From: Eledone cirrhosa
Taxonomy: Eukaryota
Direction: 5' to 3'
Assembly (NCBI GenBank): GCA_964016885.1
Contig: OZ024740.1
Coordinates: forward strand, 744,001-808,000
DNA length: 64,000 nt
The notes under the pieces were generated by a model, which had not been told where the DNA came from, ran no database searches, and saw only the letters and a list, made by a program, of their open reading frames with translations. The position numbers and the translations under genes were made by a program. Shown here one piece after another: positions 21,501 to 55,623 of the stretch (its first letter is position 1; the number at the start of each line of letters is the position of its first letter).

Positions 21501-24500
21501 ATCATAATTTAACATCCACTTTCCCTGCAAGAGTTAGACATATCATCCCAGACCAAATCAGGAGTGTAGCAGGGCTACTGACCACCCAGACAGACCAGGG
21601 GTCTACATCTCAATTATGACTAAATCAACCCACAGCAGTATATGAGATCAGAAGCTAAACACAGCACTTCATATATGCCAATAATGTTTAAAAACATTGT
21701 CATATTTGGGGAGGATCATGTTGTTCTAATATTGCCAGAAAAATATAGTAAAACACACTCACTGTTTGGTTTGGTTTTCACTTCAGTATATTTTTATATT
21801 TCTAAAAATAATTTAGCTGGCTAGCAATGTTTATCATTGATTGACCAACAGGTAAAAATATAAATATAAATATACTTTCTCAGAGTTTTTTTGTCACACA
21901 TATCTGTGACATCATCAGTGATTATCATGTTTCTATGTTCCCCCCGTTGTGTTTAAAAGCATTTCTGCTAAATCGTTCATAGCATTGTCATTGTTCTATA
22001 TTAAATACAAAAATGTTAATATGATACAGAAAACCATCAATAAAACCCGGAGGGCGAGCATACAGACCAGGAGTTTGCAGGTCATCGTTGCACTGTGCTG
22101 TCAATAATGAAGCAATGTGGGGGTTTTGGTACCTAGAAGCACATGAATTAGGACACAAGTAAGTACTGATGATGTTTATCTATGTCTCAATTAATATATT
22201 TATATGGTCATACACACACACACATATATATATATATATCAACATCCTCATCATTAGTATGGAAAATGGATGCTAAATGATGACTTATCATCATCATCAT
22301 CATCATCATCGTTTAACGTCCATCTTCCACGCTTGCATGGGTTTGGACCGGAGGTTTCCCACTTGAGGCAAGATTTGTTGTCCTGCTCGCATAGGACTGT
22401 CTGGCGGGTTTTCTACGGCTGGATGCCCTTCCTAACACCAACCACATTTACAGTGTGGAACTGGGAGGTTTTTACCGTGTTACCTACATGGCCACATTAC
22501 AGTGTGGACTGTGTTTTTTTGTCATGACACCTACACGACCTCATTTGTTTCGGACTGGATGTTGTGGTACCAACATAACTTCACATTTAAGGGGGTGGTG
22601 TGGATGGGGTGGGGTGGTGGGACGGGGGTGTATTTTGTTAGAGGTGCCTACTGACTGTAGGTTTCGCTTTGTACTTAGGCAAGGCATGTCTTCTGTATGA
22701 CTGTGTAGTGCCAAAGATCTCGGTCCAGTGACATTGTCTTGGAGTAAGTGTGTGAGGTCGGATTTATTAGGTCGTCCCAGGTTTTTCTGGGTCTGCCTAC
22801 TCCATGGCTACCGTCTATTTTTATCGCCCTGCACTTTTTTATACAGCTGTCGTCTTTCATGCGCATCACGTGACCATACCAACGTAGTTTTCTCTCGAGT
22901 AAACAACATCTGATCCCTCTTATTCCTAATTTCTCCTTTAGTTCGTTTATGCTTTGCCGTTCACGTATATTACTATTACACATCCAGCGGAGCATGCAAG
23001 CTTCGTTCTTCTCCAGTCTGCGTATATCCTCTGCACACAATGCCCCGGTCTCACTGCCTTGCAACATTGCTGTTCGTATGCAGGCATCATACAGCCTGTC
23101 TTTCATTTTTAGAGAGAACCCTTTAGCGGCTAATAGTGGTATAAGCTCTCTAAACTTTTTCCATCCCGTTCTGACTCTAGCTACTCTACTCTCAGAACCC
23201 CCCCCCCCTCCCCACTGCTGATTTTGTCACCCAGGTAATGGAAGGTGTCCACTATTTCTATAGAACCATATATATATATTTCCAGATCTGCCGCCTTTGT
23301 AGCCGAGATGCGGACATCGGGACGCAAGCCCTTTCTCTGGTCCATCATTTCACCTGGAGGGGTTACCCAGCTCCCTCGTCCACGCCGCCCTCGCCCACCT
23401 GTTTCACTCCCCCCTCTCCTACCACCCCACCACCCTACTCCTCCAACAAACCATCCTCGCCTCTTCCGACGCCTCCAGTCTGATCCTTCCACCTCCCTCG
23501 TCTTCCCGCTAGCACCCACCCTCCTTCAAACGCACACACAACCTCCACAACCTCCTCTTCTGCAGCTCCCTACACCCCAACCGCCATTTCTCCCCGGTTC
23601 CCTTCCCTGCTCCAGACCCCGCTGCCACACATGCCCCCAGATTACCAACACCACCACCTTCCAGGGACCCAACGGCCACACTCTCTCTCTGTCCGGCATT
23701 CCTCTCACTGCACCTCCTCCAGCCTTTTTATGGCCTCTGCTGCACGGAGTATGGCGCAACCTATTTAGGATAGACCAGACGCCATCTGGCCGACTTAGGG
23801 CTGAACAACGCACCATCTTCCTATTACAGACTTGCACCACCACCCCTCTTCCTTTAGCCTTCGACTGACCCTCTACCTGTCCCCTACCCCTACTAGCACC
23901 ACTAACCTCTACCCACACACACCTCACCACCCCACTACTAATACTATCAAATACTGCCCCACCTTCCTTCCTCCCCACAACACACACGCACTCACACCCC
24001 AAACACACACACACACCAGTATATATACACTCACATGTATGTACACATGTATCTTCCCCTCTCCTGTCCCCTCTCCCTCTACTAGCACCACTAACCTCTA
24101 CCCACACACCTACCTCTCATCACCCTTTCCGTCAACATTACTACTGTTCACCACAACACGCACACACCTTACCTTCCGCCATCCCCGCTCAGACTCCAAT
24201 TTTCTTGCTTCCCTCTCCTTCCCACTTCATGCACCCCTTACACATTCCCCAACCCTTTCCTCCCGGACCCATACACCGCTCCCACCCCTCTTCACTCTCA
24301 TTTTCTTTAAATTCTGTTTTTTTTATATATTCCGTTTCATTCTGTTTCTATTTATTTTGATTTCATGTTTTGTTTTTATTTCTATTTTTCCCGTCCTTTC
24401 ATGCTTTTCCTGCTAACTCCCCCACCCCACTCCCTCTCAGAGTTCCCCCCTACTCTCCTGATGAAGGACTTATGTCCGAAACGTCGTAACCCTCCCCCCC

Positions 24501-26454: not shown

Positions 26455-29400
26455 CATATTTGTCATACTTTTCATGTTTTTGGCAGGGTTTTTCTGGCTG
26501 GAAGCTCTTCCTATCACCAACCACTCTACACTATGGACTGGGTGCATTATTCATGCCACCAGCATTAGAGAGATTGTCTTACTAGACTCTTCTTCTTCTT
26601 CTTCTTCTTTTTCTTCTTTTTCTTCTTCTTCTTCTTCTTCTTCTTCTTCTTCTTCTTCTTCTTCTTCTTCTTCTTCTTCTTCTTCTTCTTCTTCTTCTTC
26701 TTCTTCTTCTTCTTCTTCCTGAAAAGGTCTGGCAACCAAACTCATAGATGTTATCCAACCATCTTGCTCATGGTCTACCCCTTGCTGTAAAATCTGTCCA
26801 GTGATTCTTTCCTGAGACATTCTTTGATCTCTCAATTCCAAGAAGTAGAGGCTCTACCTGGAATAACTCTCTCATCTCCAAGCTGCACTCTATTCATCAT
26901 CATCATCATCATCATCATCATTTAACGTCCATTTTCCACGCTAGCATGGGTTAGACGAGAGTTGTCCCACTTGAGGCAAGATTGTCTCGCTCATATAGGA
27001 CTATCTGGCAGGTTTTCTACGGCTGGATGCCCTTCTAACACCAACCACATTTACAGCGTGGACCTGGGAACTTTTTACCGTGTTACCTACACGGCCACAT
27101 GACAGCGTGGACTGTGTGTTTTTTCTCGTGACACCTACACGATCTCGATCTCATTATCTCATTTATTTGGACTGGATGTTGTGGTACCTACTTTATAGAG
27201 AAAGGGTGGTGTTGGTGGGAGTGGGAGGATAGGGTAGGGGTAGTGGATTGGGGTGTATATTTGGTTAAGAGGTGCCTACTGACTGTAGGTTTCGCTTTGT
27301 ACTTAGGCAGGGTGGGTCTTCTGTATTACTGCGTAGCGCCAAAGATCTCGGTCCAGTGACATTGTCTTAGAGAGGTGCAAGTATGTAAGGTCGGAATTTA
27401 TCAGATTGTCCCAGGTTTTTCTGGGTCTAGCTACTCCCTCCAAAGACCCTTCAGAGGAAAGCCATTTCAGATGCTTTTGTTCTCAATCATATTATTTCGG
27501 TAATTACCCAAGATTCATGACCATAGGTAAGGGTTGGCCTGAATACCAAATTGAAGATAACAAGTTTGTATGCTGTATATATTTGTAAGTCTTGGAATTT
27601 TGGTTATGTATTTGTCCGTGTTTTTATCATTCCTAGAGCACCTATTATTGTAGGTATTGTTTCTGTCTTCATCATCTCTAGATCTTTATATTTAGATAGT
27701 TTCTCCATTTCCTTGGTAGATATATTGTCATCTGTGTGGTTATTTGTCTTTGATCTCCTCATCCGTGTGTATGGGCATATCCCTATCCACTGCTCTATTA
27801 TAATTGCTGATATTGTGTCAAAAGTAGAAACAATTATTATTACTAGCTGGACCCGTGAAAAAATTCACAGATAATCCTTCTCTCTATATTATAACCCCCT
27901 CTCTCTAAATATATCAAAACCCATCCCTTTCTCTATATATTAAAACCACCCTCTCTATATATTATAACACCACCCTCTCTATATATATATTTAACCTCCT
28001 CTCTCTATATATATTTTAACCCTCCTTTCTCTATATTATAACCCCCTCTCTCTATATTATAACCCCTCTCTTTAAATATAGTATAACCCTCTCTCTCTAT
28101 ATGTATTATAACCCCCTCTCTCTATATATATATATAATAACCCATCCCTCTCTCTATATATATTATAACCCCCTCTCTCTAAATATATTATAACCCCCTC
28201 TCTCTATATATATTATAAGCCCCTCTCTCTCTATATATATAATAACCCACCCTCTCTCTCTAAATATATTATAACCCCCTCTCTCTCTCCTTTCCAAACG
28301 TTGCAGCGCTCTTTGATCTTCTTTCACCGTAGATTTTCGTAGATTGTTTACCACCCCCTTTCATTGTTTTAGCATGTCTCACTGACGTCATTCGACTTTT
28401 ATTTATATTACTGAAAGTGTGAGACACACGGTCGGACATACGGTACGTAGGTATTAGAGTATTAATATATAGATTATTATCCTTATTATTATTGTTGTTG
28501 TTGTCATTGTTGTCGTTGTTTTGTCCTAAAACTGTTATTAAATGGAATAGAAAAGCTTACCTGGTTGTCCTTCCCTACCCAATCTCCACCAGTCTAGGAA
28601 TGGCTCACAGCGATGAAACAATAAAATGTACATCAAGGCCAGAAAGTGATGGAGTTATGGGAACTCAGAGGACTGGATGGAGTAGTTGTTCCAGAGAATC
28701 TCTACTGTCATTGATAAAGTAAGTCTACACTACCACATGGCAATACCACACCACATGAGTAAGTCTACACTACCACATGGCAATGTCACACCACATGAGT
28801 AAGTCTACACTACCACATGGCAATGTCACACCACATGAGTAAGTCTACACTACCACATGGCAATACCACACCACATGAGTAAGTCTACACTACCACATGG
28901 CAATACCACACCACATGAGTAAGTCTACACTACCACATGGCAATGTCACACCACATGAGTAAGTCTACACTACCACATGGCAATGTCACACCACATAAGT
29001 AAGTCTACACTACCACATGGCAATACCACACCACCACCACTGCCCCCCACCACCACCATCCACCACTGTTTTCTCTTCACAGTAACCACCACTGCCCCCC
29101 CCCCCCCCCCCCTACCACCGCCACCACCCACCACTGTGTTCTCTTCACAGTAACCACCACTGCCCCCCCCCCCCCCCCCCCCCGCCACCACCCACCACTA
29201 CCACCGCCACCACCCACCACTGTGTTCTCTTCACAGTAACCACCACTGCCCCCCCCCCCCACCACCACCACCGCCACCACCCACCACTGTGTTCTCTTCA
29301 CAGTAACCACCACTGCCCCCCCCCCACCACCACCACCGCCACCACCCACCACTGTGTTCTCTTCACAGTAACCACCACTGCCCCCCCCCCCCCCCCCCCC

Positions 29401-32400
29401 CACCACCACCACCACCGCCACCACCCACCACTACCACCGCCACCACCCACCACTGTGTTCTCTTCACAGTAACCACCACTGCCCCCCCCCCCCCCACCAC
29501 CACCACCACCGCCACCACCCACCACTACCACCGCCACCACCCACCACTGTGTTCTCTTCACAGTAACCACCAAGCTGAATGTCTGTTTCAAGAGAACGTC
29601 AAACCAGAATATGTGGAAGACAACAATAGAAATATTACAGCAAATGGTCTTTTACCAGGTCAGTACACTCCTTCTTCTCCTCCTCCTCATCACCGCCACC
29701 ACCACCTCACCACCACCACTACCACAACCACCATCATCAGCACTACCACCACCACCACCACCACCACTACCACCCCCACACCACCACGCCACCACCACCA
29801 CCACCACCACTGCCACCACAACCACCACCACTACCACCACCACCACCACAATCACCACCACCACTACTACCACCACCACCAGCACAACCACCACCACCAC
29901 TACCACCACCACAACCACCGCCACTACCACCACCACAACCACCACCACTACCACCACTACCACCACTACCACCACCACTATCATCATCATTATCATCATC
30001 TCTTTTATGTTCATCTTACATTCCATGTTTTCATGTTCTGAACTAGACATGACAGAAGATCATGTGTTGCTCATAATCTTCCATCTTGGCAAGGTCTTTA
30101 TGGCTGGATGCCCTTCTATTGCCAATTATTTAACAGACTCTACTGGGTGCATTTAATCATGACATTAGTGCTTCATAGAGTGTACTGGGTACATTTTAAT
30201 GTGACATCAGCACTGCTACTTCATAGCTTGTAATGGGTTCATCTTATCATGGCACCAGAATTACTACTTTACAGAGTGTACTAGGTGCATTTTAACATAG
30301 CACCAGCACTAAAGAGTAGATTGGGTACATTTTATCATACCACCAATACAACCACTTTACAGAGTGTACTCGGTGCATTTTATCATGACACCAACACAAC
30401 CACTTTACAGAGTGTACTGGGTGCATTTTAACGTAGCACCAACAGAGTGTACTATAATTATTATCTCTTTTTAAGTTAACTACTACTACTACTACCACCA
30501 CATACACCACACTACTACTACTACTATCATCATCTACACCACACTACTACTACTACTATCATCATTACACCACCACACTACTGCTACTACTACTAGTTTT
30601 AAATTGCCAAAGTCTGCTGTATATTACTACGGCACCCCTACAACTCTATCATCCCTGAAGAGGGACGTGCCCTGCCAGATTTAAGGATCAGAGACATGCT
30701 GTATATTACTATGCCCCCTCCCCCTACAATTCCAGCATGATTTAAAGACCCATGCATGTACTATGACACAATTTAAATGCAAGAGAATTAATCTATTTTT
30801 TGCACTTTTGGATTTTATATCGAATGATAATAATATACAAGCAAACAGCCTCATTACGCTATATTTTATAGATGACCATCACTATCCTTTTGTTCTAGCA
30901 GTGGCAGAAAGAAACAATCCTGTCATCACTAGAACAAAAGGACGGTGATGGTCATCTATAAAACATAGTGTAATGAGGCTGTTTGCTTGCAAATGAATCA
31001 AATATTATTATTCAATATAAAACTCCTGAATGCATTTATGTATCCTCTATGTTAGAACGAAAAACGAAATTCTAATTTTTTATTTTTTTATGTATTCTAA
31101 TCTTCCTTAATCCCCTAGGTCTCTACCTTACACCAGATGATACATGTGAGTTAAATTATGGACCAGGTTTCCGATATAGGCCATATCCAGGAGAAACCCC
31201 TCATGTAAATATTTTATACCATCTTCTGTAAAACTGACCAAGAAGGCTGAGTCAGCAAGGCCAATATTTCACTAGTGCTGTGTTTTATACATTGTCAAAA
31301 TAATACAGCTACTAGTGCTGTGTTTTATACATTGTCAAAATAATACAGCTACTAGTGCTGTGTTTTATACATTGTCAAAATAATACAGCTACTAGTGCTG
31401 TGTTTTATACATTGTCAAAATAATACAGCTACTAGTGCTGTGTTTTATACATTGTCAAAATAATACAGCTACTAGTGCTGTGTTTTATACATTGTAAAAT
31501 ACTAAGCCCTCAGTGATCCAGATCACATTTATTTATTTATTTATTTATTCATTTAATCAGTTTTAACGTCTGTATAAGCCACGACAGACTAGGGGAAGTA
31601 TTGAGTATTTGTTACAGTTGTTAATCAAAAAGAACTAATGAGACAAGTAATAAAAATAAATATTTCAAATATTGAAGGCCAATGGGAGGCAGATTATGCC
31701 TAAGAAAAAGAAAGAAAATAGTAAAGAAAGGAAGCTGTAAAACAGAAGTTTCTCTTGTTGAATCTTTTCATAGCTACCATGTACTCCAAGTTTCTCTTGT
31801 TGAATCTTTTCATAGCTACCATGTACTCCAAGTTTCTCTTGTTGAATCTTTTCATAGCTACCATGTACTCCAAGTTTCTCTTGTTGAATCTTTTCATAGC
31901 TACCATGTACTCCAAGTTTCTCTTGTTGAATCTTTTCATAGCCACCATGTACTCAAAGTTTTTGTTTATATTTGGTAGATCTTTAATCATGTATTGAACT
32001 TCCAATGTTGGTAATTTTTTAAAGATATTATTAAACCATTTTTTTTAACAACCAAACACTTATCACATAAAAGAATTTTTATAATCAAAACAATCACTGA
32101 AAGAATACAATCACAAATACAATCAGCCGAGTCTTTGGAGTATAATTTATTTACTAATTAGCAATTAAACCATTAATTAACTTACTAATCAACAATGAAT
32201 AATTCATTTAATAATTACCAGTTTAATTAACTAACAATGTTGTTTCAGACGGAATGTAAGTTCCATTCCTGTACATATTTGGTCCATAATGAAAGATTTG
32301 GTGAGATGAAGGTGAATCGTCATGGGATAGCTGGTGCTTATTGTGGTCAGAACATGGTAAGTTGATCTAAACACACAATTGTGGTCAGAACATGGTAAGT

Positions 32401-34618
32401 TCATCTAAACACACAATTGTGGTCAGAACATGGTAAGTTCATCTAAACACACAATTGTGGTCAGAACATGGTCAGTTCATCTAAACACACAATTGTGGTC
32501 AGAACATGGTAAGTTCATCTAAACACACAATTGTGGTCAGAACATGGTCAGTTCATCTAAACATACACTTGTGGTCAGAACATGGTAAGTTCATCTAAAC
32601 ACACAATTGTGGTCAGAACATGGTCAGTTCATCTAAACACACAATTGTGGTCAGAACATGGTAGGTTCATCTAAACATACAATTGTGGGCAGAACATGGT
32701 AAGTTCATCTAAACACACAATTGTGGTCAGAACATGGTAGGTTCATCTAAACATACAATTGTGGGCAGAACATGGTAAGTTCATCTAAACACACAATTGT
32801 GGTCAGAACATGGTAAGTTCATCTAAACACACAATTGTGGTCAGAACATGGTAGGTTCATCTAAACATACAATTGTGGGCAGAACATGGTAAGTTCATCT
32901 AAACACACAATTGTGGTCAGAACATGGTAGGTTCATCTAAACACACAATTGTGGTCAGAACATGGTAAGTTCATCTAAACACACATACATATTTAACCAT
33001 TTAGCATTTATATGTAGAGAGAGACTAGGCATAAGAGGAATCAAATGTTGTGTGCAGGAGAGGAGATTATGTTGGTATGAAGGATGACAGCTGCATAAAA
33101 AGATGCAGAGCACTAAAAGTCAATGGAAATCTTGGAGTGGGGAGACCCAAGAAGACCTGGGATGAGGTGATAAAAGCTGACCTTACTCAATTGCACCTCT
33201 CAAAGGCGATGACACAGGACCGTGACCTCTGGTGTGACGCAGTAATACAGAAGACCCAACTTCCCACGGGTACAAACCGAAGCTGAAGCATATAGACAAT
33301 ATGCTCCCACCCCTCCCACTGTAAAGTGGTCGTGTAGGTATAACAACAAAAACACACCCAGTCCACACTGTAAAATGGTCGTGTAGGTGCCACGGTAAAA
33401 AAGCACTCAGTGCTCACTGTAACTGAGGTTGGTGTTAGGAAGGGCATCCAGCTGTAGAAATCAAGCTAAAATCAGCTCTGTATCAGCAAGACAAGGTACC
33501 CTGACCTGGCATTGCCCACAACAGGACAACCCACCTAACCCAAGCTAGCGTGGAAGAACGGATGTAAAATGGTGATGATGAAACCAAGCCAAAATCAGTT
33601 CTGTATGAGCAAGACTTGATCACCTGACCTGACATTGTTCACAATAGGATAACTCGTCTAACCCATGCAAGCATGGAAAAATGTACATTAAATGGTGATG
33701 ATGATGATTATGATTACTCTATATTAACTATTGTATTTTCATGATAAACACTTTATTTCATATAATTATCTCACATACAACATTATCTCGCCAACAACAA
33801 CTCTGAGCACCTTTTTGATCTCCATGTGTCTAACACATGTGGACATGTCTACAAAATCAGAAAACAGCACAGCTCCCATGACTTTCGTAAACATTTTTTC
33901 ACGCTCAGAGTTGCTGAAGCATGGAACAAACTGCCTGCGTCAGTTGTTAGCTGCCAAGACACTGCATCCTTTAAAACCCTCATGCTTCCCGAAATATGCC
34001 AAAACTACACCTGATGTATCCCTTCCATACACATGCACACATGTGTATATCATGACTCATGCACTGTTCATTTTCCTGACATTTGTACATTACCCTATGT
34101 ACTATACATACACTTTTTGATGAGTTGTAGTGCACCTGAGCACTGTACACAATATTTCATTATTATTATTATTATTATTATTATAATATCGAATCTACGA
34201 GATTTTGATATTTATTTTGAGAACAATACCTTAACATAAGTATGAGCACCCAGTTTGAACAGAAAGAGATGAAATAATCCTGACCAGATATGGCCGATTT
34301 AAATGCTAAAAGATTAAGCTCAAATGTCTGGCAACTGACTTCGTAGACACCCACAAGATTATTAACCATCTTGCCAACACCCATGGACATGCTTGTAAAA
34401 TCAGAAAATAGTACATTTCCCATGACTTTCGGAAACATTTTTTCATGTTCAGAGTTGCTGAAGCATGGAACAAATTATCTGCATCAATTCTTAGCTGTTG
34501 GGACACTGCATCTTTCAAAACCGCCATGCTTCCTGAAATTCACATACCTACCTACCCAGGTGTAAAACTGTCCTATAACTTGGAGCATACATATATACAG
34601 TGATTTTTACCTATTACT

Positions 34619-34653
<35 letters not shown>

Positions 34654-37181
34654 TTTACGTCCGCTTTTCCCTGCTTGCAAGGGTGGGACGGGTCTTATTC
34701 AGCACAGCATCTCTCCACTCTTCACGGTCCCTCGTCATCTCCACCGTGAGCTTCAATGATCTGAGGTCTGTTCTCACCACCTCCGCCCATGTTTTTCGTG
34801 GTCTACCTCTACCACGTCTTCCTTCAACTGCCAATTCCTGGCACTTCTTCACCCATCGGTCATCCTCCATGCGCATCACATGTCCATACCACCTCAGTCT
34901 CCTCTCCCGTACACTACATTCTATCCCTCTCAGACACAGTTTCTCTCTCAACACATTTATGCTGGGTCGTTCACGCACATTTACACTGCACATCCAACGG
35001 AGCATGCTTGCCTCATTTCTCTCCAGCCGTCGCATATCCTCTGCAGTTGCTGCCCATGTCTCACTACCATGCAGCATCGCGCTCCTCACACAGGCATCAT
35101 ACAACCGGCCTTTCATACGCAGGGAGAAACCCTTCTTCATCAACAGAGGAAGCAGCTCCCTAAACTTCTTCCAGCCCGTCCTTATTCTAGATACTATGGC
35201 CTCGGAACACCCTCCTCCCATGCTAATCTGATCTCCTAGGTACCGGAAGCTATCCATCACTTCTATAGCGCCCTCTTGCATTTGAAAAATGTGTCTATCA
35301 GTGCGACTTCTACTGTCTAATTTCCCTGTACATCTACTGCATACATATTTCTCCCTACCTGTTAGTTTGCCTGCTATCCTGCTACATCTCTTGTGTACTA
35401 TATATTGTTTATTTTTTTCCCACTTTCAGGTTTGTGTACTAAACCTACAATGTGTCAATATCAAGACCCTAAATTTAAGGGTACCTATAACTGTAACAGC
35501 TGGTGGCTGGGGATTGTGGGGTGCATGGTCTGAATGTATTTCTGTTTGTGGACCTGGGATCAGATACCGTGAACGATTATGTACAAACCCAAAGTAAGTT
35601 TTCACATGGATTTCACTGACACTGTTATTGTTTAACCCCAGCTTTGATGTAATCTAGCACACATATGGTCCAGGGCCTCCTTGAGGTGTTCATCCTGTTT
35701 ATTTTCCCCCTTTCAGACTCCACCATCTCGTGTATAAGGTTTGGTATGTTGGTATGTTGGTAGTCAGTGTTAAAGTAATTGTGAAAACTAGTGTATAAGG
35801 TTTACTATGTTGGTATGTCAGTGTTAACATAATTGTAGAGTCTGGTATATAAGGTTTGGTATGTCTGTGTTTAAAATAATTGTGGAGACTGGTGCATAAG
35901 GTTTACTATGTTGTATGTCAGTGTTAAAATAATTGTAGAGTCTAGTGTATAAGGTTTGGTATGTTGGTATGTCTGTGTTAAAATAATTGTAGAGTCTGGT
36001 GTATAAGGTTTGGTATGTTGTATGTCAGTGTTAAAATAATTGTAGAGTCTGGTGTATAAGGATAACTATGTTGGTATGTCTGTGTTAAAATAATTGTAGA
36101 GACTGGTGTATAAGGTTTGGTATGTTGTGTCTGTGTTAAAATAATTGTAGAGACTGGTGTATAAGGTTTGGTATGTTGTGTCTGTGTTAAAATAATTGTA
36201 GAGACTGGTGTATAAGGTTTGGTATGTTGTGTCTGTGTTAAAATAATTGTAGAGACTGGTGTATAAGGTTTGGTATGTCTGTGTTAAAATAATTGTAGAG
36301 ACTGGTGTATAAGGTTTGGTATGTTGAGTCTGTGTTAAAATAATTGTGGAGACTGGTGTATAAGGTTTGGTATATTGTATCTGTGTTAAAATAATTGTGG
36401 AGACTGGTGTATAAGGTTTGGTATGGAGACATGTATATGAGGATTTTTATGTCGTGTTTGTGTTAAAAATAATTGTTGATGAAGTGAAAGACAAACATGT
36501 TTATTTGATAAATTTGAAACCTCTATTTCAGACCACTGAATAGTCCACAGTGTAAAGGACAGCAATACAGTTCTGTGGCCTGTACTGGAAAGGTAGGAAA
36601 ATGTATGACACCGTATGTGTATATTTCCTCGGTGTTGTTTTATGTCTGAGACAAGCAGTGTTAAAAAATCATCATTATTGTTGCAAGCAGGCTTGCCTCA
36701 AAGTGTTCCGTTGACTCTTATGATGTGTGACTGATTGTCACACTTAATGGTGAATTGATGGTCGTTTTTGCTTCCCCTCTTTTTTTTCTTTTTTTTTTCC
36801 TTTCTCTCACTATGTTTATGTGTTCTGGTGCGTTGTTTATATGAGCTTCTTTCCATGGCTGTATTTGTTATATGTGTTTATTTCTGTGTTTATCAACGAC
36901 ATTATATTTCTAATGTTATTCATAAAAATGTGAATAAAATTATAGAAAATAGAAAAAATTAAAAATGATTTAATTCATGCATTTCAAAAGTCTATTTTCA
37001 CTTTTACATTGGTGTGTGATGTCATAAAAGTATTTCTTTCACCATACCAAGCTGAACCTAATTATCAAGCAGGCTTTGATTCCAGTTAAAATGTGGTGGC
37101 TCGTCTCAAAAATTATAAGAGGGAAGCTCTGGTGCCACTCCTTTTTCTCTCCTTTTTTTAAGTTCTGTATACATATGTGTG

Positions 37182-37219
<38 letters not shown>

Positions 37220-40200
37220 GGTTTGAAGGTTCACCACTGGACAATTCCGTATGGTCAATCTTGATATAATAATATGGAGAGTACTCAACGTAAAGCAGCT
37301 CAACCGTCCTCATTTGTGTAGTTGGTGGTGCGAGTACGGAGTTAAATATTATAATAAAATAACAGGAGGCTGGACTTGTGTAAATCCTTGAAAGGTTTAT
37401 TATACTATGATCATTTCAATGACCGGGTTCCGTATGAATCCGGCGATATCATCAGGTATTCTAAATATAATAAATGAATGTAACAGATAAAATCCATGGG
37501 GCTGAAAATCGTAGACCGAGGATGACCGACCATCTAGCATCTTCCACTTTAGCCGGTCGCCCTCAAGTGTTGCCCATTCAGCCTACTTAAGGCTATCTGG
37601 TGAGGGGGCTAAAGCTTATAGTGTGCTACTAACCTCCCGGTCAAAGAGAAGAAAAACAGAAAGGAAGAAGAAGAAAAGTCAGCGTTAATGTCATGCTACA
37701 AGAAAAAAGACAGAAAGAAAGAGAAAGAAAAGTCAGCATTAATGCCATGCTACAGTCAGGCCAGGAATTGCCGTGAAAAAAGTTATTCTAAAGGACCCGT
37801 ATCTTAGCAGAGGTATATATAGTGGGGGTCTACATGGTATAATGGGTGAGTAGAAGATTGGAACGTTAAATTTTGTTTAGATTTATAGGATGAAGTTAAA
37901 AAAATTAAAGATTAACATTAGAAAATTAAAAAATTAGAAAATTGAAAATTAAACAGTTTAAAAAATTTTTTAAGGTTTTGGGGTGTGAGGTTTAGTTAAA
38001 GAAAGAGTCTTTTATGAAGAAACTTTAATTGTATTATAGAGATCCTCTATAAGTTATCCGAGTGGGATGTAGAGTAAAGATTATGTCCTTGTTTAGCAGT
38101 CAAACAGCATGCGGCGACTGCAGACCCCGGCCAGCCCATCCTAACCACATGTCAGCCATTCCAAGTGAGATCGCCTAGCGAAAGATATGGAAATCAATTT
38201 TTCCAAGCACTCTAGGAATGTATTCCAGGCTTCAGGTGTGCTAGTGGGAAGTCAGCCATCGTTGTTAGACCATTGTTATACCAAATGAGTACTATAAATT
38301 TACACAGGAGGGGGATTTGTTTAAGTAGAGGGAGGCATGATACAGCTAATAGTTATGATTAGGCCTAGAATTTAAAGGTACTATATGGCGGTCAAAAAAC
38401 GGCTGCGTGGCGGGCCCCAGGGCGAATCAAGCTGCTCCGAGTTATTTCATTTACCGAAGGAAGGGGAATTTGAACTATATTGTATTTCTCCTATGTTTTG
38501 ATTTCTCCGTTTTACTCCACCACCACTCTAGTTATTTTTATTTGTTTATTTATATATTTCTACCTTTTTACTTTATTCATCATCATCATCATCATCACCG
38601 TTTTACGTCCGTTCTTCCACGCTAGCATGGGTTAGACGGGTTGTCCTGTTGTGGGCAGTGTCTGGTCAGCTGACCATGCCTTGCTCATACAGGAACTGAT
38701 CTGGCTTGATTTCTACAGCTGGATGCCCTTCCTAACACCAACCTCATTTACAGTGAGTGCTGGGTGCTTTTTCGTGGCGCCTACACGTCCACTTTACAGT
38801 GTGGGCTGGGTGCTTTTTTGCCGTGGCACCTCCACGACCACCTTGCGGTGGGGGAGGGGGGCATATTGTTTATATGCTTCAGCATGTACCCATGGGAGGT
38901 CGGGTACCCTGTATTACTGCGTGACGCCAGAAGTCACGGTCGTGTGTCATTGACTTTGAGAGGTGTAGTTGGGTAAGGTCGGCTTTTATCACCTCATCCC
39001 AAGTCATCTTGGGTCTCCCCACTCCGCGGTTTCCATCAACTTCTAGTGCTCTGCACCTTTTTATGCAGCTGTCATCCTTCATACGCATCACATGTCCATA
39101 CCAGCGTAACCGCCTCTCCTGCACGCAGCATTTGATTCCTCTTATGCTCAGTCTCTCTCTCAATTCCTTTATGCTTTGTCGTTCACGTATATTACTGTTA
39201 CACATCCATCGGAGCATGCAGGCTTCGTTTCTCTCTAATCTACGTAAGTCTTCCACCTTCAGCGCCCAGGTCTCACTACCATGCAACATCGCTGTTCGGA
39301 TACACGCATCATACAGTCTGCCTTTCATTCTGAGGGAGAAGCCTTTTGCAGCTAGCAGTGGTAGTAGTTCCCTAAACTTCTTCCATCCCGTTCTTACCCT
39401 AGTTATTGTACTTTCTGAGCACCCACCTCCGTTGCTAATTCGGTCACCTAGGTAGCAGAAGCTGTCTACTGTTTCTACAGGGCCCTCCCAGAGATTGGTG
39501 GTACTTGTTTCCTGTGGCTGTTTGCTTGCTGTTTCAGCACAGCTGCTGCATGTGAATCCTACATTCTTAATTAAGCTTCCTGAAATCCCGCTACATCTCT
39601 TGTGTACCCATTGTTTGCATTTGGGGCAGAGAATGGAGTTCCTACCTACACCTTTCCTACATACTGAGCAAGGCCATTTCCCTGAGGGGATCTGGGTTCT
39701 GTTTTCTCGTCTACTTATAAGGACCTTAGTCTTTGTCATGTTGACTTTGAGGCCCTTTCTCTCTAGTCCCTGCTTCCAGGTTTGGAATTTATTCTCTAGT
39801 TCTACCATAGATTCAGCTATGAGTGCGAGGTCATCAGCATACAGGAGTTCCCATGGGCATCCGGTCTTAAACTCCTCCGTTATTGCCTGCAGGACTATGA
39901 TGAACAGGAGAGGGCTAAGAACAGAGCCCTGGTGGACCCCAACCTGTACGCTAAATTCCTCGCTATACTCATTGCCAATCCTAACTTTGCTGACTGCTCC
40001 CCTATACATGGCTTGTACCGCTTTCACAAGCCATTCATCTACTCCTAGTTTTCTAAGAGCCCACCAGATTACTGCACGTGGAACTCTGTCAAAGGCTTTC
40101 TCAAGGTCGACAAATGCCAAGTAGAGTGGCTTACTTTTAGCTAGGTACTTTTCCTGTAATTGCCTCACAAGGAAGAGGGCATCAGTGGTGCCTTTCCCTG

Positions 40201-43200
40201 GTACAAACCCAAATTGCATCTCGTCTATATTCACCCGGTCCCTAATCAGCTGTGCTATAACTCTTTCTGTTACTTTCATGACCTGGTCCATTATTAATGT
40301 GTTTTATCTACGTATTCTACTTTTATCTATCTATGTCTTTTTTATTCCTTGTACTCACTTGTACCCACAACACTAGAATATCTCCCCCTGAGAACAACAA
40401 TACCTATTACCCGGACTATCTGGGGACCTAGATATAGTCTATTTGCGCTTTTCATTGAGTTTTACAATTGATTACACACGATGATCCGACTGGTGTGGTG
40501 GTTTTCCTGGCTGTGAGACCGGCCTCCTGGTGCATGGGCCAACCTTAAGTGCTTGGAAAAATAAATTTCCCCTTCTTTCGGTATATGAAATAACTCGGAG
40601 CAGCTTGATTCGCCCTGGGGCCCGCTGCGCAGCCATTTTTTGACCGCACTATATATACCTCTGCTAAGATACGGGTCCTTTAGAATAACTTTTTTCGCGG
40701 CAATTCCTGGCCTGACTGTAGCATGGCATTAATGCTGACTTTTCTTCCTCTTTCTTTCTGTCTTTTTTCTTGTAGCATGACATTAACGCTGACTTTTCTT
40801 CTTCTTCCTGTCTGTTTTTCTTCTCTTTGACCAGAAGGTTAGTAGCACACTATAAGCTTTAGCCCCCTCACCAGATAGCCTTAAGTAGGCTGAATGGGCA
40901 ACACTTGAGGGCGACCGGCTAAAGTGGAAGATGCTAGATGGTTGGTTGTCCTCGGTCTACGATTTTCAGCCCCATGGATTTTATCTGTTACATTCATTTA
41001 TTATATTTAGAATACCTGATGATATCACCGGATTCATACGCAACCCGGTCATAGTATAATAAACCTTTCAAGGATTTACACAAGTCCAGCCTCCTGTTAT
41101 TTTATTATAATATATATATATCATCACTGCTTAACATCCATTTCTCCACGCTAGCATGGGTTAGAGTGATTGTCCCATTTGAGGCAAGTTGGGTCAGGTG
41201 ACTGTGTCTTGCTCACACAGAACTCTTTCTGGCTTGGTTTCTATGCCTAGATGCCCTTCCTAACACCAACCACATTTAAATTGTGGGCTGGGTCATGACA
41301 CCTACATTTACCACCTGGTGTGGTGTGTGTGTGTGTATGTGTGTGGGTGTATGTGTGTGCGCACATGTGTGTGTGTGTGTGTGTGCGCGCGTGTTTGTGC
41401 ATGTGTTTGTGTGTGCATGAAACAGCCAATACAAAACATAATCCATTTATAAGATACATTGCTGTCCTCTTACTGTAGCCATGTTCAATAAGACAGCCAA
41501 TACACTATATAATCCATTAATAAGATACAATAACTATAATGCTGTCCTGTTGTTGTAGCCATGTTCAAGAAGAGAGCCAATACACAATAACTATAATGCT
41601 GTCCTCTCTATTGTAGCCATGTTCTAGAAGAGAGCCAATACACAACATAATCCAGAAGTCTATTAATGATTTATGCCAACGTTTTGTGAATCTTGGAATA
41701 CTGAAAAAAGAACACTACAGTGAAGGAAGACTATTTGGTTCTGGTAGAGTTTTTCTAATGATTCTAACCGTTTTGTTAATCCAATCAGTCATAGAGGGCA
41801 GCACCAACAATGGGATGAGGAATTAAGGGGTTCTCTGTAGCAGCAACCTGGTGCAGTCTGCAACTAATCCAGGCTCTGCTGCACTTTGGGCCAAGGAACG
41901 TAAACTCTCCAAATATCAGTCGCTCTCCAACAGGTTTGTAGTCGAACCCATAGCAGTGAAGGCTTCTTGAGTCCTTGGCCCTAGGACCACCTCCCTACTC
42001 ACCACCATCAGCATGGAGTTGGCTGCCTGCAGGTTTGAGTCTTGCAAGCTGGAATGGCTCTTCCAACGTGTCTCTCTCACCATCCTCCAGGGAAATGCCT
42101 TTTCTATTCTATCTACTGGGACCGCGTGGTGGCCCGAGTGTGGCCTCCCATTTGCTTATAATAGTAAGAGATGGGGAGAGATGGAGGCAGTGACTATACC
42201 AGCATTGCTGAATTATTTTGTAGAAATCACTTAACTTTTAAGTTAAATGATTTCATTTCTACATAGCTTTCTAACTTCAATTATGTATATAATAGTTGTT
42301 GACTCTAACCCTTTGTTAATCCAACCAATCCTAGAGGGCAACACCAACCATGTTGACTATACTCCACTGTAAGAACTGTTATTGTGTTATTGTTTCACTC
42401 TGTTCAGGCCAAGTTCAAGGAGTTTATATTGATAATCATTGATATGACTATATTAATTTGTAGGTATCAGGTAAAGTTTGCCTTTCATTTTTTTGGGGCC
42501 GATAAAAACAATACTATATCTCTATCGCAAATTTTGAGTTCAACAATGTTACCACCCCTTAAGGGCTTAAGGGTGGTGGTTTGACAGAATTAGTAGAGCA
42601 TCAGGTAAAATACTATTGTGGTATTTGTTCTGGCTCTTTACATTCTGAGTTCAAATCCTGTGAAGGTCAACTTTGCCTTTCCTCCTTCTGAGGTTAATAA
42701 AATGAAGTATCAGTCAAATACTTTGGTTGATTTAAGCAATTTTGCCCTTTCCCCGAATTTGCTGACCTTGTGCCATGATTAGAAATCAATATAAACAGGG
42801 TGTCCCAAAAAAACCTGTTGAAGTGTGTATGCATTTTTTGGAACATCTTGTATATTCTATATATTTTTATTTAACGATCAGATAAATTAACCGCATGTGA
42901 AGTAATTTGTCATTCCAACCCAAGATTGAAAACTGACCGATTGAATAGATATGGTTTACTTCCTGATGGAACTCCGTGTGAACTTCCTGGGTCTTACCTT
43001 GATCCAATGAGATGGAAAAAGAAGGCAATTTGTATCAATGGGGCCTGTGAAGTAAGTTTGTAGAACATTTAATATTTTCTTTGAGATTTGCTGAGTAAAA
43101 TTGTGAAGTTGTGTGGCCCAGTGTGTAGGTCTTATCTCATGATTGTAAGGTCATGTGTCGGATCTCCATACTGGGTCGTACTTTGTATCCTTGAGCAAGG

Positions 43201-46200
43201 TATTTCATTTCACATTACTCCAGTTCATTTCTGTAAACAACTGAGTATCACCATCAGGCATCCTTTACTCTCAGATACTTAGTATCTCATGAAATTAGGA
43301 TAAGCTCTGATCTAATGGCCCTCTAGCCTCAACAATGACTTTAAAAAAAGGTAAAATCTGAAGCATTACTAAACAGAAAGTCTTGATGTGTTAGGCTGGT
43401 TTTAATGGCGGGCAAAGGGGAAGATTTCCCCAGGCCCCTGCAGTGGTGGTGGTAGGGGGGGGGGGGGGCACCAGCAATTTATTTGTGCCCTCAGCTAGGC
43501 TTTTTAGTTTTAGGATGGTTAGAATTTTTGTTTTTAAAACCTGTATGTATAACTTTTCAATTCCAATTACTTGAGTCAAGATAACTTTGATATGTAAAAT
43601 TGGGGAGTCTGCTGTGTATTCTAATATTTTGTGTATGAGGGGCCCCACAAACTTGAAATGCCCCAGGCCCTTCAATGTCTAAATCCGACTCTGGGTAGAA
43701 GTGAAATTTCTGATCTGTTTAATTCTTTAAGATTGAAATGAAGTCTTGAGATTTTGAGAAATATTTACACTTATATTTTACTTTACTATTCAGCAACTTA
43801 GTAAATTGGCAGAGTTGTTAGGTTATTGGACTAAATGCTTCACAGAATTTATTGCAGTTCTCTGACCTTTGAGTTCAAACCCTACCTAGCTCAACTTTAC
43901 ATTTCACTCTTTTGAAGCTGATCAAAGAAAAGTACCAGTCCAGAACAGTGGATTTGTCTATTTCAAATCTTACCCTACTCTCTTCAAAAACGAAAACATT
44001 GGTTAATGTAATCCAAGATACATTATGGCTGAATGTAATGGGAAATGGTCATAGCTGGAAATCCTTTGATCATAGGTCTGCTGTATCAAAGTTAACCAGA
44101 GCTAAAAAGTAACAATAATTTATAGATTGGCCATCAATAATTCAATATTCTAGTGGGGTCAAGTATCTCTTTTCCACTCAGCGCTTCAGAAAACAGAAAC
44201 CAGTGTCGAGGAAGGATTTAGAGAAAAAAAGATACTAATATATATAAAAGAAATAAGATTTCGCTTCAAGCATAGCTTTATACAATACTAGCAGTGGTAC
44301 CCGGCGTTGCACGGGATAAGGTATTTTGGAACGCGGGCCGCCAACAGACTTAATCGTGGAAAAACTGCATGCCTGGACAATATGTCAAGAAAATAAACCG
44401 AATACTCTGATGGCTGGATAATCTAAGATTTTCCTCGATGAAGCTAGGAATTTTTTTTATGAGCATAATATGCCTTGAAATTTCAGGAAAATCGGCTAGA
44501 CGTAATGCCTCAAAAAAGCCCTAAAAAGCTGAAAGAAATTAAGTTTTTCACCTAATGCGGGCCCTAGGCCATAAAAAAGTTGGATTTTCTTTGCTTATGG
44601 TATGAAGAACAGACTGATTAATACATAGTTACAATTTCAAGGAAATCGGTCTGACGTAACGCCTCAAAAAAACCCTAAAACCTTGAAAAACGCAGTTTTT
44701 CACCTAATGCGGGCCCTAGGTGATCAAAAAATTTAATTTATTTTATGTGCATAACACTCCCTGGAATATAAGTAATACACATGTAAAGTTTGAAAAAGAT
44801 CATACACACATACATACATACATACATACATACATACATCCTTCCTCAGTTTTATATATATACATATATAGATTAAAATAACAGATTAAAGTTTAAGAAA
44901 AGAATCGTTGCTTTCACCCTTAACGGGATCTTCTGAAACTAAAAACATCAATCTGTGAACGCAGATGTAAATATTTTGAAAAACGTTGCAACTGAAGGAA
45001 AACAGGAAGACGATACTTTGGTTCGTGAAGACGTTCCCTGGCATTGAACGGATAATAGCGAACATAATACATCCCCAATGTTTGTCAGAATGTCGTCATG
45101 CAGACAGCCAGGCATACAGACATATATTATAAAAGTGCGACGGAGATGGATAACCGGCGCCTAACATCCCTTTAACAACAGAAAATTTAAAAATAAAAGG
45201 AATATATAAATGCAAGTGACTACATAATTATTGCTGGTGACCTAAATGGTCACGTTGGACAACATTGTGATGGCTATGACGGAATCCATGGAGGCTATGG
45301 GTTTGGTACTAGAAATGAGGAAGGCTCCAGAATCCTGGAATTCTGCGACGCAAATAACCTAACTATCTGTAATACTAACTTCAAAAAACGAGACAATCAC
45401 TTGATCACCTATAGATCAGGGGAACACACCAATCAGATAGATTATATCCTTACCGGAAGACGTGATAGAGTGTCTGTTGTAAACACTAAATCCCTCCCCC
45501 ATGAAGAATGCACCTCCCAACATAGACTCATAGTCAGGACAAGACGTACTCGACAACAGAGGAGGACTATCCTCAGGAGAAAAATATGGAAGCTAAAGGA
45601 CCCCACAGCCAGTAATAAATTTAAAAGCATATTACTTGATGCTTTCGACAATAAGGAAGAGCAATTAGAGTCGTACAATATAGAGGAACAGTGGGAATTC
45701 CTGAAAGCTAACCTGCTGAAGGCGGCAGATGAAGTTTGTGGCTGTAGCAGGCCTATAGGCAGGAGTAGAGTAACGTGGTGGTGGAGGAGTCAATTAAGGC
45801 AAAAAAGCAGGCTTGGAAAGCATGGCGGGATGGGGGAAGTAGAGAAGACTATCAAGTGGCCAGGAGGGAAGCTAGGAGACAAGTGTACTTCGCAAGAAGA
45901 GATGCAGAGGAAAGAAAGTTCAGGCATGTTCTACAACGCGAGGACCAAAAACGTGAGGTGTTCAGGATTGCTAGGCAATGTGTCAAGGAAAACCGTGATA
46001 TTGTCGGGGAGAAGTGTGTCCTTTATGATGATGGTGTACTTGCCATCACTGATGCTGATAAGAAGGTAGCTTGGAAGTGTCACTACGAAAGGCTACTAAA
46101 TGAGGAGAATAAATGGGAGAAAGACAGTCTCCCCCACATCAATCCAATAGAGGGACCAGCAGTGCGAGTTGAAGGTAGTATAATAAGTAAGGCAATCAAA

Positions 46201-49200
46201 GATATGAAGACGGGTAAGGCGGCCAGGCCTTCGGAAATAGTTGCTGAAATGCTGAAAGCATCTGGAATGGTGGGACACACTATGGTCACCCGGATAGTAA
46301 ACCAAGTCATACAGAATGGGGCCGTTCTGAAGGACTGGTGTAGCAGCATCATCATTAACTGCTACAAGGGTAAAGGAGATGCTCTTGATAGGGGTAACTA
46401 TAGAGGCATTAAATTAATCGACCAGGTCATGAAGGTCACAGAAAAAGTAATAGCGCAACTAATCAGAGAACGAATTGATCTAGATGAAATGCAGTTCGGG
46501 TTTGTGTCAGGTAAAAGTACCACAGACGCTCTTTTCATTGTACGACAACTACAAGAGAAGTACCTAGCTAAAAGTAAACCCTTATACTTAGTTTTTGTTG
46601 ACTTGGAGAAAGCCTTTGACAGAGTCCCCCTGCTCCATTATCTGGTGGGCGCTTAGAAAACTAGGTGTTGATGAATGGCTTGTGAGAGCTATACAAGCCA
46701 TGTATAAAGAAAAAGTCAGCAAGGTTAGAATTAACAACGAATATAGTGAAGAGTTTAGCGTAAAAGTTGGTGTTCATCAGGGCTCCGTTCTTAGCCCCTA
46801 CTATTTATTATTGCCCTTCAGGTTATAACAGAGGAGTTCAAGACCGGCTGCCCATGGGAACTCCTATATGCAGATGATCTAACGCTCATAGCTGAATCAA
46901 TGGCTGAACTAGAGAAGAAATTCCAAACATGGAAGCATGGCCTAGAATCAAAAGGCCTTAAAGTTAACTTGTCTAAGACTAAAGTTCTAGTTTGTAGGAA
47001 GGAAAACAGGGCACCGGTCCCATCTGGGAAATGGCCATGCTCAGTGTGTAGGAAAGGAGTAGGCAAAAACTCCATTTTATGTCCCAAATGCAAAGTATGG
47101 ATGCATAAAAGATGTAGTGGGATCACAGGTAAGCTAACTAAGAATATAGATTTTATATGTGGCCGGTGCTCTGGTGCAATAAGTAGCATCAAGTACCCAC
47201 TGAATACTAGCTCATTCCATTGCACAGATGGTACTATAGAAATAGTGGACAGCTTCCGTTACCTGGGTGACAAAATCAGCAGTGGGGGGGAGGGTGCTCT
47301 GAAAGTACAGTAGCTAGAGTCAGAACGGAATGTAAAAAGTTCAGAGAGCTTATACCACTATTGGCCGCTAAAGGGTTCTCTCTAAAAATGAAAGGCAGGC
47401 TGTATGATGCCTGCATACGAACAGCAATGTTACATGGCAGTGAGACCTGGGCATTGTGTGCAGAGGATATACACAGACTGGAGAGAAACGAAGCTTGCAT
47501 GCTCCGCTGGATGTGCAATAGTAATATACGTGAACGGCAAAGCATAAACGAACTAAGGGAGAAATTAGGAATAACAGGGATCAGATGTTGTTTACTCGAG
47601 AGAAGACTACGTTGGTACGGTCACGTGATGCGCATGAAAGACGACAACTGTATAAAAAAAGTGCAGGGCGATAAAAACAGACGGTAGCCACAGAGTAGGC
47701 AGACCCAGATAAACCTGGGATGACTTGATAAATTCCGACCTCACACACTTACACCTCTCCAAGACAATGTCACTGGACTGAGATCTTTAGCACTACACAG
47801 TCATACAGAAGACCCGCCTTGCCTAAGTACAAAGCGAAACCTACAGTCAATAGGCACCTCTAACAAAATACCCCACCGCATCCACACCACCCCTTTAAAT
47901 GTGAAGTTATGTTGGTACCACAACATCCAGTCCGAAACAAATGAGGTCGTGTAGGTGTCACGACAAAAAAAAACATACAGTCCACGCTGTAATGTGGTCG
48001 TGTAGGTAACAGGTTAAAAACCTCCCAGTCCACACTGTAAACATGGTTGGTGTTAGGAAGGGCATCCAGCCATAGAAAACCCGTAAGACAATCCTATACG
48101 TGCAGGACAACAAATCTTGCCTCAAGTGGGAAAACTCCCGTCCAAACCCATGCAAGCGTGGAACATGGACGTTAAACGATGATGATGATGATGATGATGA
48201 TGATTTGCAAAAATGAGGACACACACACACAGACACACAACATCAGTTTTATATATATAGATATAGATGTATAGAAATTTCGTATTTCTAAAGAAATACG
48301 GTTTTAGGAAGCTGTAGCTACGCAAACACCAGGGGAGGGGGGGGGCACTAATGCCCTCTGGTAGTGTCCAGCAGAAGCAAGGGGGACAACCGTCTATGCA
48401 TTTCAGGTTTGATTGGCCTTCATCAGGATGGTCCCTCCCACCGCTTGCTACTGCTGGACTTGAAAACAGTCGAGAATATATAGTTTTCTTGACTGTGTAA
48501 ATGAGGCGATTAATCTCATTTGTATATGAAGCTGCATAAGTTGGCTCAACTTATAATAGAAAAGAAATAAGATTTCGCTTCAAGCATAGCTTTATACAAT
48601 ATGTATAGAAATTTTGTATTTCTAAAGAAATACAATTTTAGGAAACCGTAGCTATGCAAACCTAAAGAATGGGTAGAAAATGGCAGAATTGGCAGAGTAT
48701 GGGACCAAATACCTTGTGGTATTTGGTTACATCTCTTAATATTTTGAGTTCATATTCCACCCAGATTATCTTTGCATTTAATCTTTCCATCTTCTTCTCC
48801 CACTTATTCCTGAGAGGGTCATGGGAACAGAATCCTCAAACACTTCTTCCAGAAGGTTCTGTCAGAAGCAACCGTCTCCAACTGATCTGACTGGATCCCC
48901 AAGTGAGACTAGTGAAGCTCATGGATGTTATCCAACCATCTTACTTGAGGTCTACCCCTGGGTCTCCTGCCGGTTGGTTTTTCCCGTAAAATCTGTCCAG
49001 CGATCCTTTCCTGAGACATTCTAACCACATGTGCATAGTGATCTATCAATTCAGAGAAGTAGCTGGTCTACCTGTGACACTCTCATCTCCGAGCTACACA
49101 CTCTATTGAGTAACATGACTCCAAAGATCCTTCGGAGGAACCCTAACCATTTGGAGTAAAATAAAGTAACGACCAAAGTACAGGAGTTGATATAATTGAC

Positions 49201-54168: not shown

Positions 54169-54471
54169 TTAACCATTTAGTATTTACATTACTCTACATA
54201 TACTACTATATTTTCATGGTAAGGGCTTTACCTCACAATTATCTCACATAATATCTCACATAACATTTACATTACTCTATATATATACTACTATATTTTT
54301 ACGGTAAGGGCTTTACCTCACATAATATCTCACATATCAAATCTATGAGATTTTGATATTATTTATTTTGAGAACAATACCTTAACATCAGTATGAGCAG
54401 CTGGTTACAGCCAGTTTGAACAGAAAGAGAATTCTGGCTGGATATAGCTGGTTTAAATAGTAAAGGGTTAA
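54169..54471. mobile_element. TTAA-flanked piggyBac-like MITE
   Basis: TTAA-CCATTTAGTATTTA...TAAATAGTAAAGGG-TTAA. A split copy has ends at ~32993 and ~34318. Confidence 0.65.
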
Positions 54472-55089: not shown

Positions 55090-55472
55090 GAATTTACATT
55101 ACTCTATATTTACGTTACTCTAAGTTACATTACTCTATATTTACACTACTCTATATTTACATTACTCTATAATTACATTACTCTATAATTACATTACTCT
55201 ATATTTACACTACTCTATATTTACATTACTCTATATTTACTTTACTATATAATTACATTACTCTATATTTACACTACTCTATAATTACATTACTCTAAAT
55301 TTACACTACTCTATAATTAGATTACTCTATATTTACACTACTCTAAATTTACACTACTCTATATTTACATTATTTATATTTACACTACTCTATATTTACA
55401 TTACTCTATATTTATATTACTCTATATTTACGTTACTCTATATTTACACTACTCTATATTTACATTACTCTA
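55090..55472. repeat. 16-bp satellite (TACTCTATATTTACAY), left part
   Basis: Direct. Confidence 0.95.
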
Positions 55473-55623
55473 TCTGTTAGAACACGAAAAGTGTGAAACA
55501 ACAGAATGTTCACTTTTCGTGTTCTAATATATATGCCTAACATCTTCATAAATTTTTCGGGGATAGCCGTGGTGGTGGTGATCGTATGTCATTGGCTAAT
55601 TTTCAACCAATCAGAGTAAGTGT

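Follow-up and report, generated by a model that had tools for sequence, protein, structure and literature searches.

Minisatellites whose units lie across an exon–intron junction have been described in human and in amphioxus genes. In the variable number tandem repeat of human F7 intron 7, the unit is 37 bp, the first monomer lies across the exon–intron boundary, and the most upstream of the identical donors, which are 37 nt apart, is reported to be the only one used (PMC1557585). The pseudo-sites of F7 are functional once the earlier sites are destroyed; sites strengthened to a consensus value of 91 did not compete, perfect sites did, and the number of monomers (1–6 and 8–12 tested) was without effect (PMC1557585). 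Donor-spanning arrays of 10–25 units are also reported in human 6-16, CBS intron 13, LAMIN B2, and PDGF intron 4, and for LAMIN B2 and PDGF only the true donor is used, leaving the pseudo-sites unused (cited in PMC1557585). In amphioxus, the ‘mirages’ of Adh3, globin, TnC, and PGBD5 are boundary duplications at donors and acceptors that are unstable in length, with splicing that is undisturbed as judged by reverse transcription PCR (PMC3087553, PMC3902484). Among the matches listed from the open-licence literature, no report of splice-junction minisatellites in cephalopods was found. In the present study, a window of 64,000 nt (contig OZ024740.1, positions 744,001 to 808,000; all coordinates below are positions within this window) was analysed, and an array of this kind was identified at the donor of exon J, the tenth of 16 mapped exons of a gene for an ADAMTS-like M12B metalloprotease.

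The minisatellite is located at 32340–32985 (+) by Tandem Repeats Finder (TRF), with a period of 38, 17.0 copies, 94 % matches, 0 % indels, and a score of 1180. When cut from 32340, the 38-bp unit is made up of the 17 terminal nucleotides of exon J and the 21 initial nucleotides of the intron. A first-pass annotation of the sequence had divided it as 16 + 22 from 32341; the span across the boundary stands, and the division is a one-base rotation of the unit given here. Otherwise its description of the array was confirmed, including the 17 copies of 38 bp, the three donor variants, the CAG|AACATG|GT of each unit (CAG, 6 nt, and GT are arranged in this way in 17 of 17 copies), and a stop directly after the true donor in the first copy only. 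The array closes on a whole unit and microhomology is absent at both flanks. There are eight distinct unit types among the 17 copies, with a mean pairwise identity of 95.7 %, and six columns of the unit are variable (-17, -10, +3, +4, +8, and +18). The GT is kept in all 17 copies, as GTAAGT in ten (copies 1, 2, 3, 5, 7, 10, 12, 13, 15, and 17), GTAGGT in four (9, 11, 14, and 16), and GTCAGT in three (4, 6, and 8). These variants occur in blocks; GTCAGT is confined to copies 4–8, and GTAGGT and the -10 variant to copies 9–16, alternating in each case. Of the two edge units, copy 1 has a private base, a G at +8 (1 of 17) that creates an in-frame TGA (32363–32365, +), yet copy 17 is the majority unit. 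Downstream of the putative authentic donor, the GTAAGT of copy 1 (32357–32362, +), there are 16 pseudo-donors at 38-nt spacing (32395–32970, +; GT at 32395 + 38k), nine of them GTAAGT, four GTAGGT, and three GTCAGT. The repeat is far beyond chance, but repeats of such a class are common in the window. The unit itself has no other copy in the 64 kb, the sole match outside the array being 11 nt long (E 0.35). The array is non-coding, with a period that is not a multiple of 3, and the longest stop-free runs of 37 aa on the plus strand and 23 aa on the minus strand rule out a coding repeat or a minus-strand gene. Likewise, identity with an RNA family is ruled out by the absence of any Rfam match in the whole window.

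Structurally, the exon J array is a splice-junction-spanning minisatellite, the class already known from human F7 and the amphioxus mirages: units of minisatellite size lie head to tail across the exon–intron boundary, with the authentic donor at the exon-side edge. The F7 period is 37 rather than 38, and there too the true donor precedes identical pseudo-donors. F7 is reported to have 4 exon nucleotides copied, 5–9 units, and a weak donor (consensus value 74), whereas the exon J array has 17 exon nucleotides, 17 units, a strong GTAAGT, core changes in seven of the 16 downstream copies, and the copy-1 stop. Donor usage and polymorphism have been measured in F7, while the exon J array is known from one sequence alone. 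The 17 units fall within the range of 10–25 for the arrays of 6-16, CBS, LAMIN B2, and PDGF. The likeness to the amphioxus mirages, the units of which are 10–160 bp, extends to the presence of several arrays in one gene, at both donors and acceptors, with GT and AG kept, in a marine invertebrate; the phylum is different, however, and length instability and normal splicing are reported for the amphioxus arrays.

The host gene was mapped to 12978–54157 (+) by aligning Octopus sinensis and Argonauta hians proteins to the window, which gave 16 exons (A–P), the terminal exons being beyond the mapped set. The model is a stop-free frame of 676 residues with 64.8 % identity to an O. sinensis protein, ‘ADAMTS 7-like’ (P0002), and 62.2 % to an A. 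hians hypothetical protein (P0001); ‘7-like’ is the label of the source for P0002 only and is not a subfamily assignment from a tree. Using exon F as query, one protein was found, from A. hians (74 % identity, among one candidate), and with the A. hians protein as query the O. sinensis protein was found (one among 1375 candidates). The exon K query gave no further orthologues among four candidates. As the homologues found are from O. sinensis and A. hians, the window is likely to be from an octopod. An HExxHxxGxxH zinc motif is present at model residue 291, spanning exons F and G, and a TSP1 repeat is found downstream of the protease and Cys-rich region (PF00090, E 1.3e-6, above the cut-off); the match to the reprolysin propeptide (PF01562, E 5.7e-4, 20.9 bits) is below its cut-off of 23.7. 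In P0002 and P0001, as in the model, a putative propeptide is followed by the zinc protease, the Cys-rich region, TSP1, and ADAMTS Cys-rich. As to a signal peptide, a full spacer, and C-terminal domains, no convincing match was found within the window for residues 1–64 of P0002 or for those beyond about 700. The P0002 model is without the exon F stretch that carries the initial half of the zinc motif, 42 of its 43 residues being gapped. This stretch is present at 22030–22158 and in P0001, and its absence from P0002 reflects either incomplete annotation or a genuine loss. Exon C has two possible starts, 17571 and 17604, both of which keep the frame, and 17604 was adopted on its resemblance to P0002; a start at 17554 was rejected, as it breaks the frame.

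Exon J (32249–32356, +) is 108 nt long, with phase 0 at both ends, and on its homology is judged to be real, with 30 of 36 residues identical to P0002 (tblastn E 4e-15). It appears to code for the Cys-rich, disintegrin-like region that follows the protease domain and precedes the TSP1 repeat; this repeat begins in the partner of exon J, exon K (35430–35593, +; Pfam TSP_1, E 1.3e-6; 40 of 55 residues identical to P0002). Copy 1 is the only one of the 17 donors with a stop-free join to exon K, and for this reason it is taken to be the true donor. The spacing at the junction in homologues agrees. Among 151 proteins, 56 could be aligned across the J–K junction at a score of at least 300, and the Cys–Cys spacing is 5, as in the window, in 53 of them; two have a spacing of 4, and one is unreadable.

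Each of donors 2–17 yields a premature stop (16 of 16). All of these donors had been said to be unproductive because of the TGA; the premature stops are upheld, but the TGA is rejected as their cause, because they arise without it and the frame suffices. When the majority base is placed at +8, donors 3–17 still stop at a second in-frame stop, a TAA inside the copy-2 donor (32396–32398, +), which closes them independently of the TGA, and use of donor 2 shifts the frame so that a stop is reached 10 nt inside exon K. If the G at +8 were absent, every downstream donor except donor 2 would still be preceded by an in-frame stop; for donor 2, the next one, at 32396, is past its cut site. The claim that all are unproductive also ignores a route through the CAG that the same annotation had pointed out, which is in frame, stop-free, and adds two residues.

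The exon J array is not the only one in this gene to lie on a splice site. From the 89 TRF rows for the window, those with a period of at least 10 and an entropy of at least 1.5 were merged into 35 arrays, 28 of which are inside the gene; minisatellite-like rows make up 15.9 % of the window, and periods of 35–63 occur often among the arrays of the gene. A splice site is spanned by four of the 28, namely those at the exon G and exon J donors and at the exon H and exon M acceptors, and the other 24 touch none. At exon G, a donor array identified by TRF and frame analysis (28718–29034, +; 40 bp × 7.9) contains eight GTAAGT sites and copies 1–2 exon nucleotides; all seven downstream sites are behind an in-frame stop. 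Before exon H (29043–29572, +), the acceptor occurs seven times, always together with the initial 9 nucleotides of the exon, and the last occurrence (29564) is authentic. Before exon M (41456–41645, +), about 25 exon nucleotides are included in three copies (exon starts 41479, 41559, and 41617), the last again being authentic and both upstream copies giving stops. The authentic site is the exon-side copy in all four of these arrays, which leaves the normal transcript available.

Intron G (845 nt, 28718–29572) is almost wholly composed of two arrays, eight donor copies at its 5′ end and seven acceptor copies at its 3′ end. Of the six acceptors that precede the authentic one of exon H, that at 29369 keeps the frame without a stop and would add 65 Pro/Thr/His-rich residues (29369–29563), although the frame of this route depends on the lengths of poly-C runs and is possibly sensitive to the assembly. 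Other arrays are near splice sites without spanning them (14044–14304, 31271–31501, 35749–36425, and 53920–54062, at 60, 67, 107, and 9 nt). Many young arrays with periods of 35–63 bp are present at 20341–53224, five of them at 38–42 bp within 28718–53224, and a common mutational step size is possible behind the similar periods. The exon J unit junction at 32373–32382 is a perfect 10-bp palindrome; as a hairpin signal this is reached by four out of 100 shuffles and is not significant among the 19 arrays tested. A hairpin-driven origin of the arrays was rejected, the mean DNA-fold z being -0.05 over these 19 hand-picked arrays.

The favoured explanation, with a probability of about 0.75, is a near-neutral tandem expansion in which the pseudo-donors are silent or slightly leaky and the first donor carries out nearly all splicing. 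The array probably originated in one chance tandem duplication of 38 bp across the exon J donor, and the block-wise variants point to expansion by slippage or unequal exchange. It would have survived because the exon-side copy restores the normal transcript, as the position of the authentic site in four out of four splice-site arrays suggests. By analogy with human F7 and the amphioxus mirages, donor 1 would take nearly all splicing. Any leak products with stops would probably be removed by nonsense-mediated decay, which acts on premature stops with exon junctions downstream, since at least five such junctions lie downstream here. The closure of the array on whole units, its structured variants, its lack of coding potential and of Rfam matches, the absence of an unusual fold, the like accessibility of the copies, the even spread of changes over copies 2–17, and the frequency of similar arrays away from splice sites in the gene were all counted in favour of neutral expansion. 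As the spare donors are likely to be ignored, as they are in the human and amphioxus repeats, the array is probably an ordinary mutational by-product.

A number of points weigh against this. The silence of the pseudo-donors is carried over from other species, the direct observations being the anatomy of the array, exon J and its frame, copy 1 as the sole productive donor, and the 28 arrays with four on splice sites. The J donor is strong (-9.1 kcal/mol, predicted), and the only private variant of copy 1 creates a stop. Two pseudo-sites are reported to be used besides the true donor in both 6-16 and CBS (cited in PMC1557585). When identical globin donors were paired in HeLa cells, the intron-proximal site came to be preferred at spacings above about 30 nt and was used almost exclusively at 45 nt or more (PMC3413131); in the exon J array, the spacing is 38 nt between adjacent copies and at least 76 nt between non-adjacent ones. 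Given this preference for the downstream site, the spare donors could compete. In addition, the four splice-site arrays out of 28 are not predicted by purely random placement. A null of random one-unit seeds expects 0.94 such arrays (P 0.013, or P 0.032 with interspersed repeats masked). Under other nulls, the excess has P 0.005 when exon overlap is limited to 30 nt and P 0.44 when placement is unrestricted, and seven of the 28 arrays are within 100 nt of a splice site, where 3.0 or 5.6 are expected depending on the null. When the exon J array, which was the reason for flagging the window, is dropped, the excess has P 0.06 and 0.11. The excess is weak and null-dependent, a lead from one gene.

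The strength of the donors bears on an alternative in which the array is a copy-number rheostat, several U1 snRNPs loading on the array and splicing being drawn to the downstream donors, the products being degraded, and array length setting protease output. U1 duplex energies were computed with an 11-nt U1 motif. Nine of the 16 downstream copies match the true donor over -3 to +7 and have the same predicted energy of -9.1 kcal/mol, and the four GTAGGT copies, at -8.8 kcal/mol, are within 0.3 kcal/mol of it; the three GTCAGT copies are at -5.0 kcal/mol. The 16 donors of the gene range from -1.6 to -9.4 kcal/mol, and that of exon J is among the strongest. From these predicted energies, the copies can plausibly bind U1, and the regulatory reading of the first-pass annotation, a dense array of U1-binding sites in competition with the true donor, is only partly supported. 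The premature stops on all 16 downstream routes are also in keeping with a rheostat, as are the intron-proximal preference of strong duplicated donors (PMC3413131) and the association of tandem repeats with splicing changes at many human loci (PMC10078293). However, F7 minigenes, the closest tested case, are reported to show no competition up to the consensus value of 91 and no effect of monomer number (PMC1557585), seven of the 16 copies have weakening changes at +3 or +4, and only its position distinguishes the exon J array from the 27 others in the gene. Such a rheostat is considered unlikely. The weakening changes are themselves not enriched; the donor core holds no disproportionate share of the changes among copies 2–17 (2 of 5, P 0.34), and selection to weaken the pseudo-donors is unsupported. 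Two further explanations involving U1 sites were rejected. Concealment of the pseudo-donors by RNA structure is argued against by predicted accessibility that is alike in all 17 copies (0.035–0.063), copy 1 not being singled out, and by an RNA fold of the array that is not stronger than its shuffles (z -0.87). Protection by U1 against intronic polyadenylation is not supported, as there is a single polyadenylation hexamer in the 3073 nt of intron J, a density (0.33 per kb) near the bottom of the range for the 15 introns.

A wider proposal joins these elements: octopod genomes would preferentially seed minisatellites on exon–intron junctions genome-wide, a mirage phenomenon for which no molluscan report is among the matches listed, and the exon J array would act as a rheostat, with ten U1-equivalent donors 38 nt apart sending splicing partly into decay and the copy-1 stop guarding against the nearest competitor. 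This is regarded as improbable.

Taken by itself, the idea that the TGA of copy 1 is a selected guard is less credible still. Here, a stop before donor 2 would let stop-dependent suppression silence the nearest competitor and make the array tolerable. It is in keeping with this that the G at +8 is private to copy 1, that donor 2 is the one donor left without a preceding in-frame stop when this base is removed, and that mammalian cells are reported to leave latent donors unused when a stop precedes them (PMC3510495). Among the other 15 donors of the gene, five have an in-frame stop within four codons, four of these five being at phase-2 introns, and of the six phase-0 donors besides that of exon J, only one is followed by such an early stop. 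The argument rests on one base in one array, however, and an orthologous intron would be needed to give the +8 change a direction. In the amphioxus mirages, the units at the edges are known to escape homogenization (PMC3087553), and in F7 two pseudo-sites that are stop-free are still reported to be unused (PMC1557585).

The CAG route could also be read as a micro-exon cassette or an intron gain, in which donor 1 is joined to a later CAG, 6 nt are kept, and the donor of that copy is joined to exon K. The frame would allow it, and repeats at exon–intron boundaries are reported to be able to create introns (PMC2812944, PMC3087553). With a matrix made from the gene's own acceptors, the CAG context of the units scores 1.6–3.0, and the commonest form, at 2.4, is above four of the 16 authentic acceptors (leave-one-out). 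However, the authentic median is well above this, at 6.1 (range -1.7 to 11.6), the CAG score ranks at the 75th percentile among the 2350 AGs that the gene span contains, and pyrimidines make up 6–8 of 17 positions. The distance from a donor to the adjacent CAG is 32 nt, which is too short for an intron, and a longer Cys–Cys spacing is present in none of the 56 aligned proteins, one being unreadable. The cassette is very improbable. An assembly artefact, by which the copy number or the array itself would be erroneous, is hardly credible: there is a single sequence, and the number of copies may represent only one haplotype, but the eight distinct units are in ordered blocks without indels, which assembly errors rarely make.

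Elsewhere in the window, a 16-bp AT-rich satellite is present at 55092–55473 (24 copies) and at 61233–64000 (173 or more copies, reaching the window end), and words related to it are found just past the exon P donor, near 54175–54310. Copies of a non-LTR retroelement are located at 38879–40303 (-), 4258–5898 (-), and 45197–47687 (+), with a reverse transcriptase (PF00078, E 2.5e-29) and a PHD-like domain; two of the copies share 92 % identity across 1.7 kb. The copy at 38879–40303 is flanked by inverted 54-bp × 2 repeats (37647–37754 and 40717–40824). Inverted, partly overlapping ORFs of near-identical sequence at 260–1000 (-) and 946–2277 (+) had no significant match in Pfam; they resemble what we take to be a Penelope-type reverse transcriptase element.

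These results extend a known class of splice-junction minisatellite to a cephalopod gene. They are also a warning for annotators, to whom arrays of this kind present false donors and acceptors in large numbers. The first-site scanning described for F7 and the intron-proximal rule of the paired globin donors lead to opposite expectations when strong identical donors lie 38 and 76 nt from each other; a natural 17-mer with three sister arrays in one gene could decide between the two rules in an invertebrate. Should the seeding of minisatellites on junctions prove true genome-wide, it would point to mutation being linked with exon boundaries and to a route by which introns are gained and expression comes to vary.

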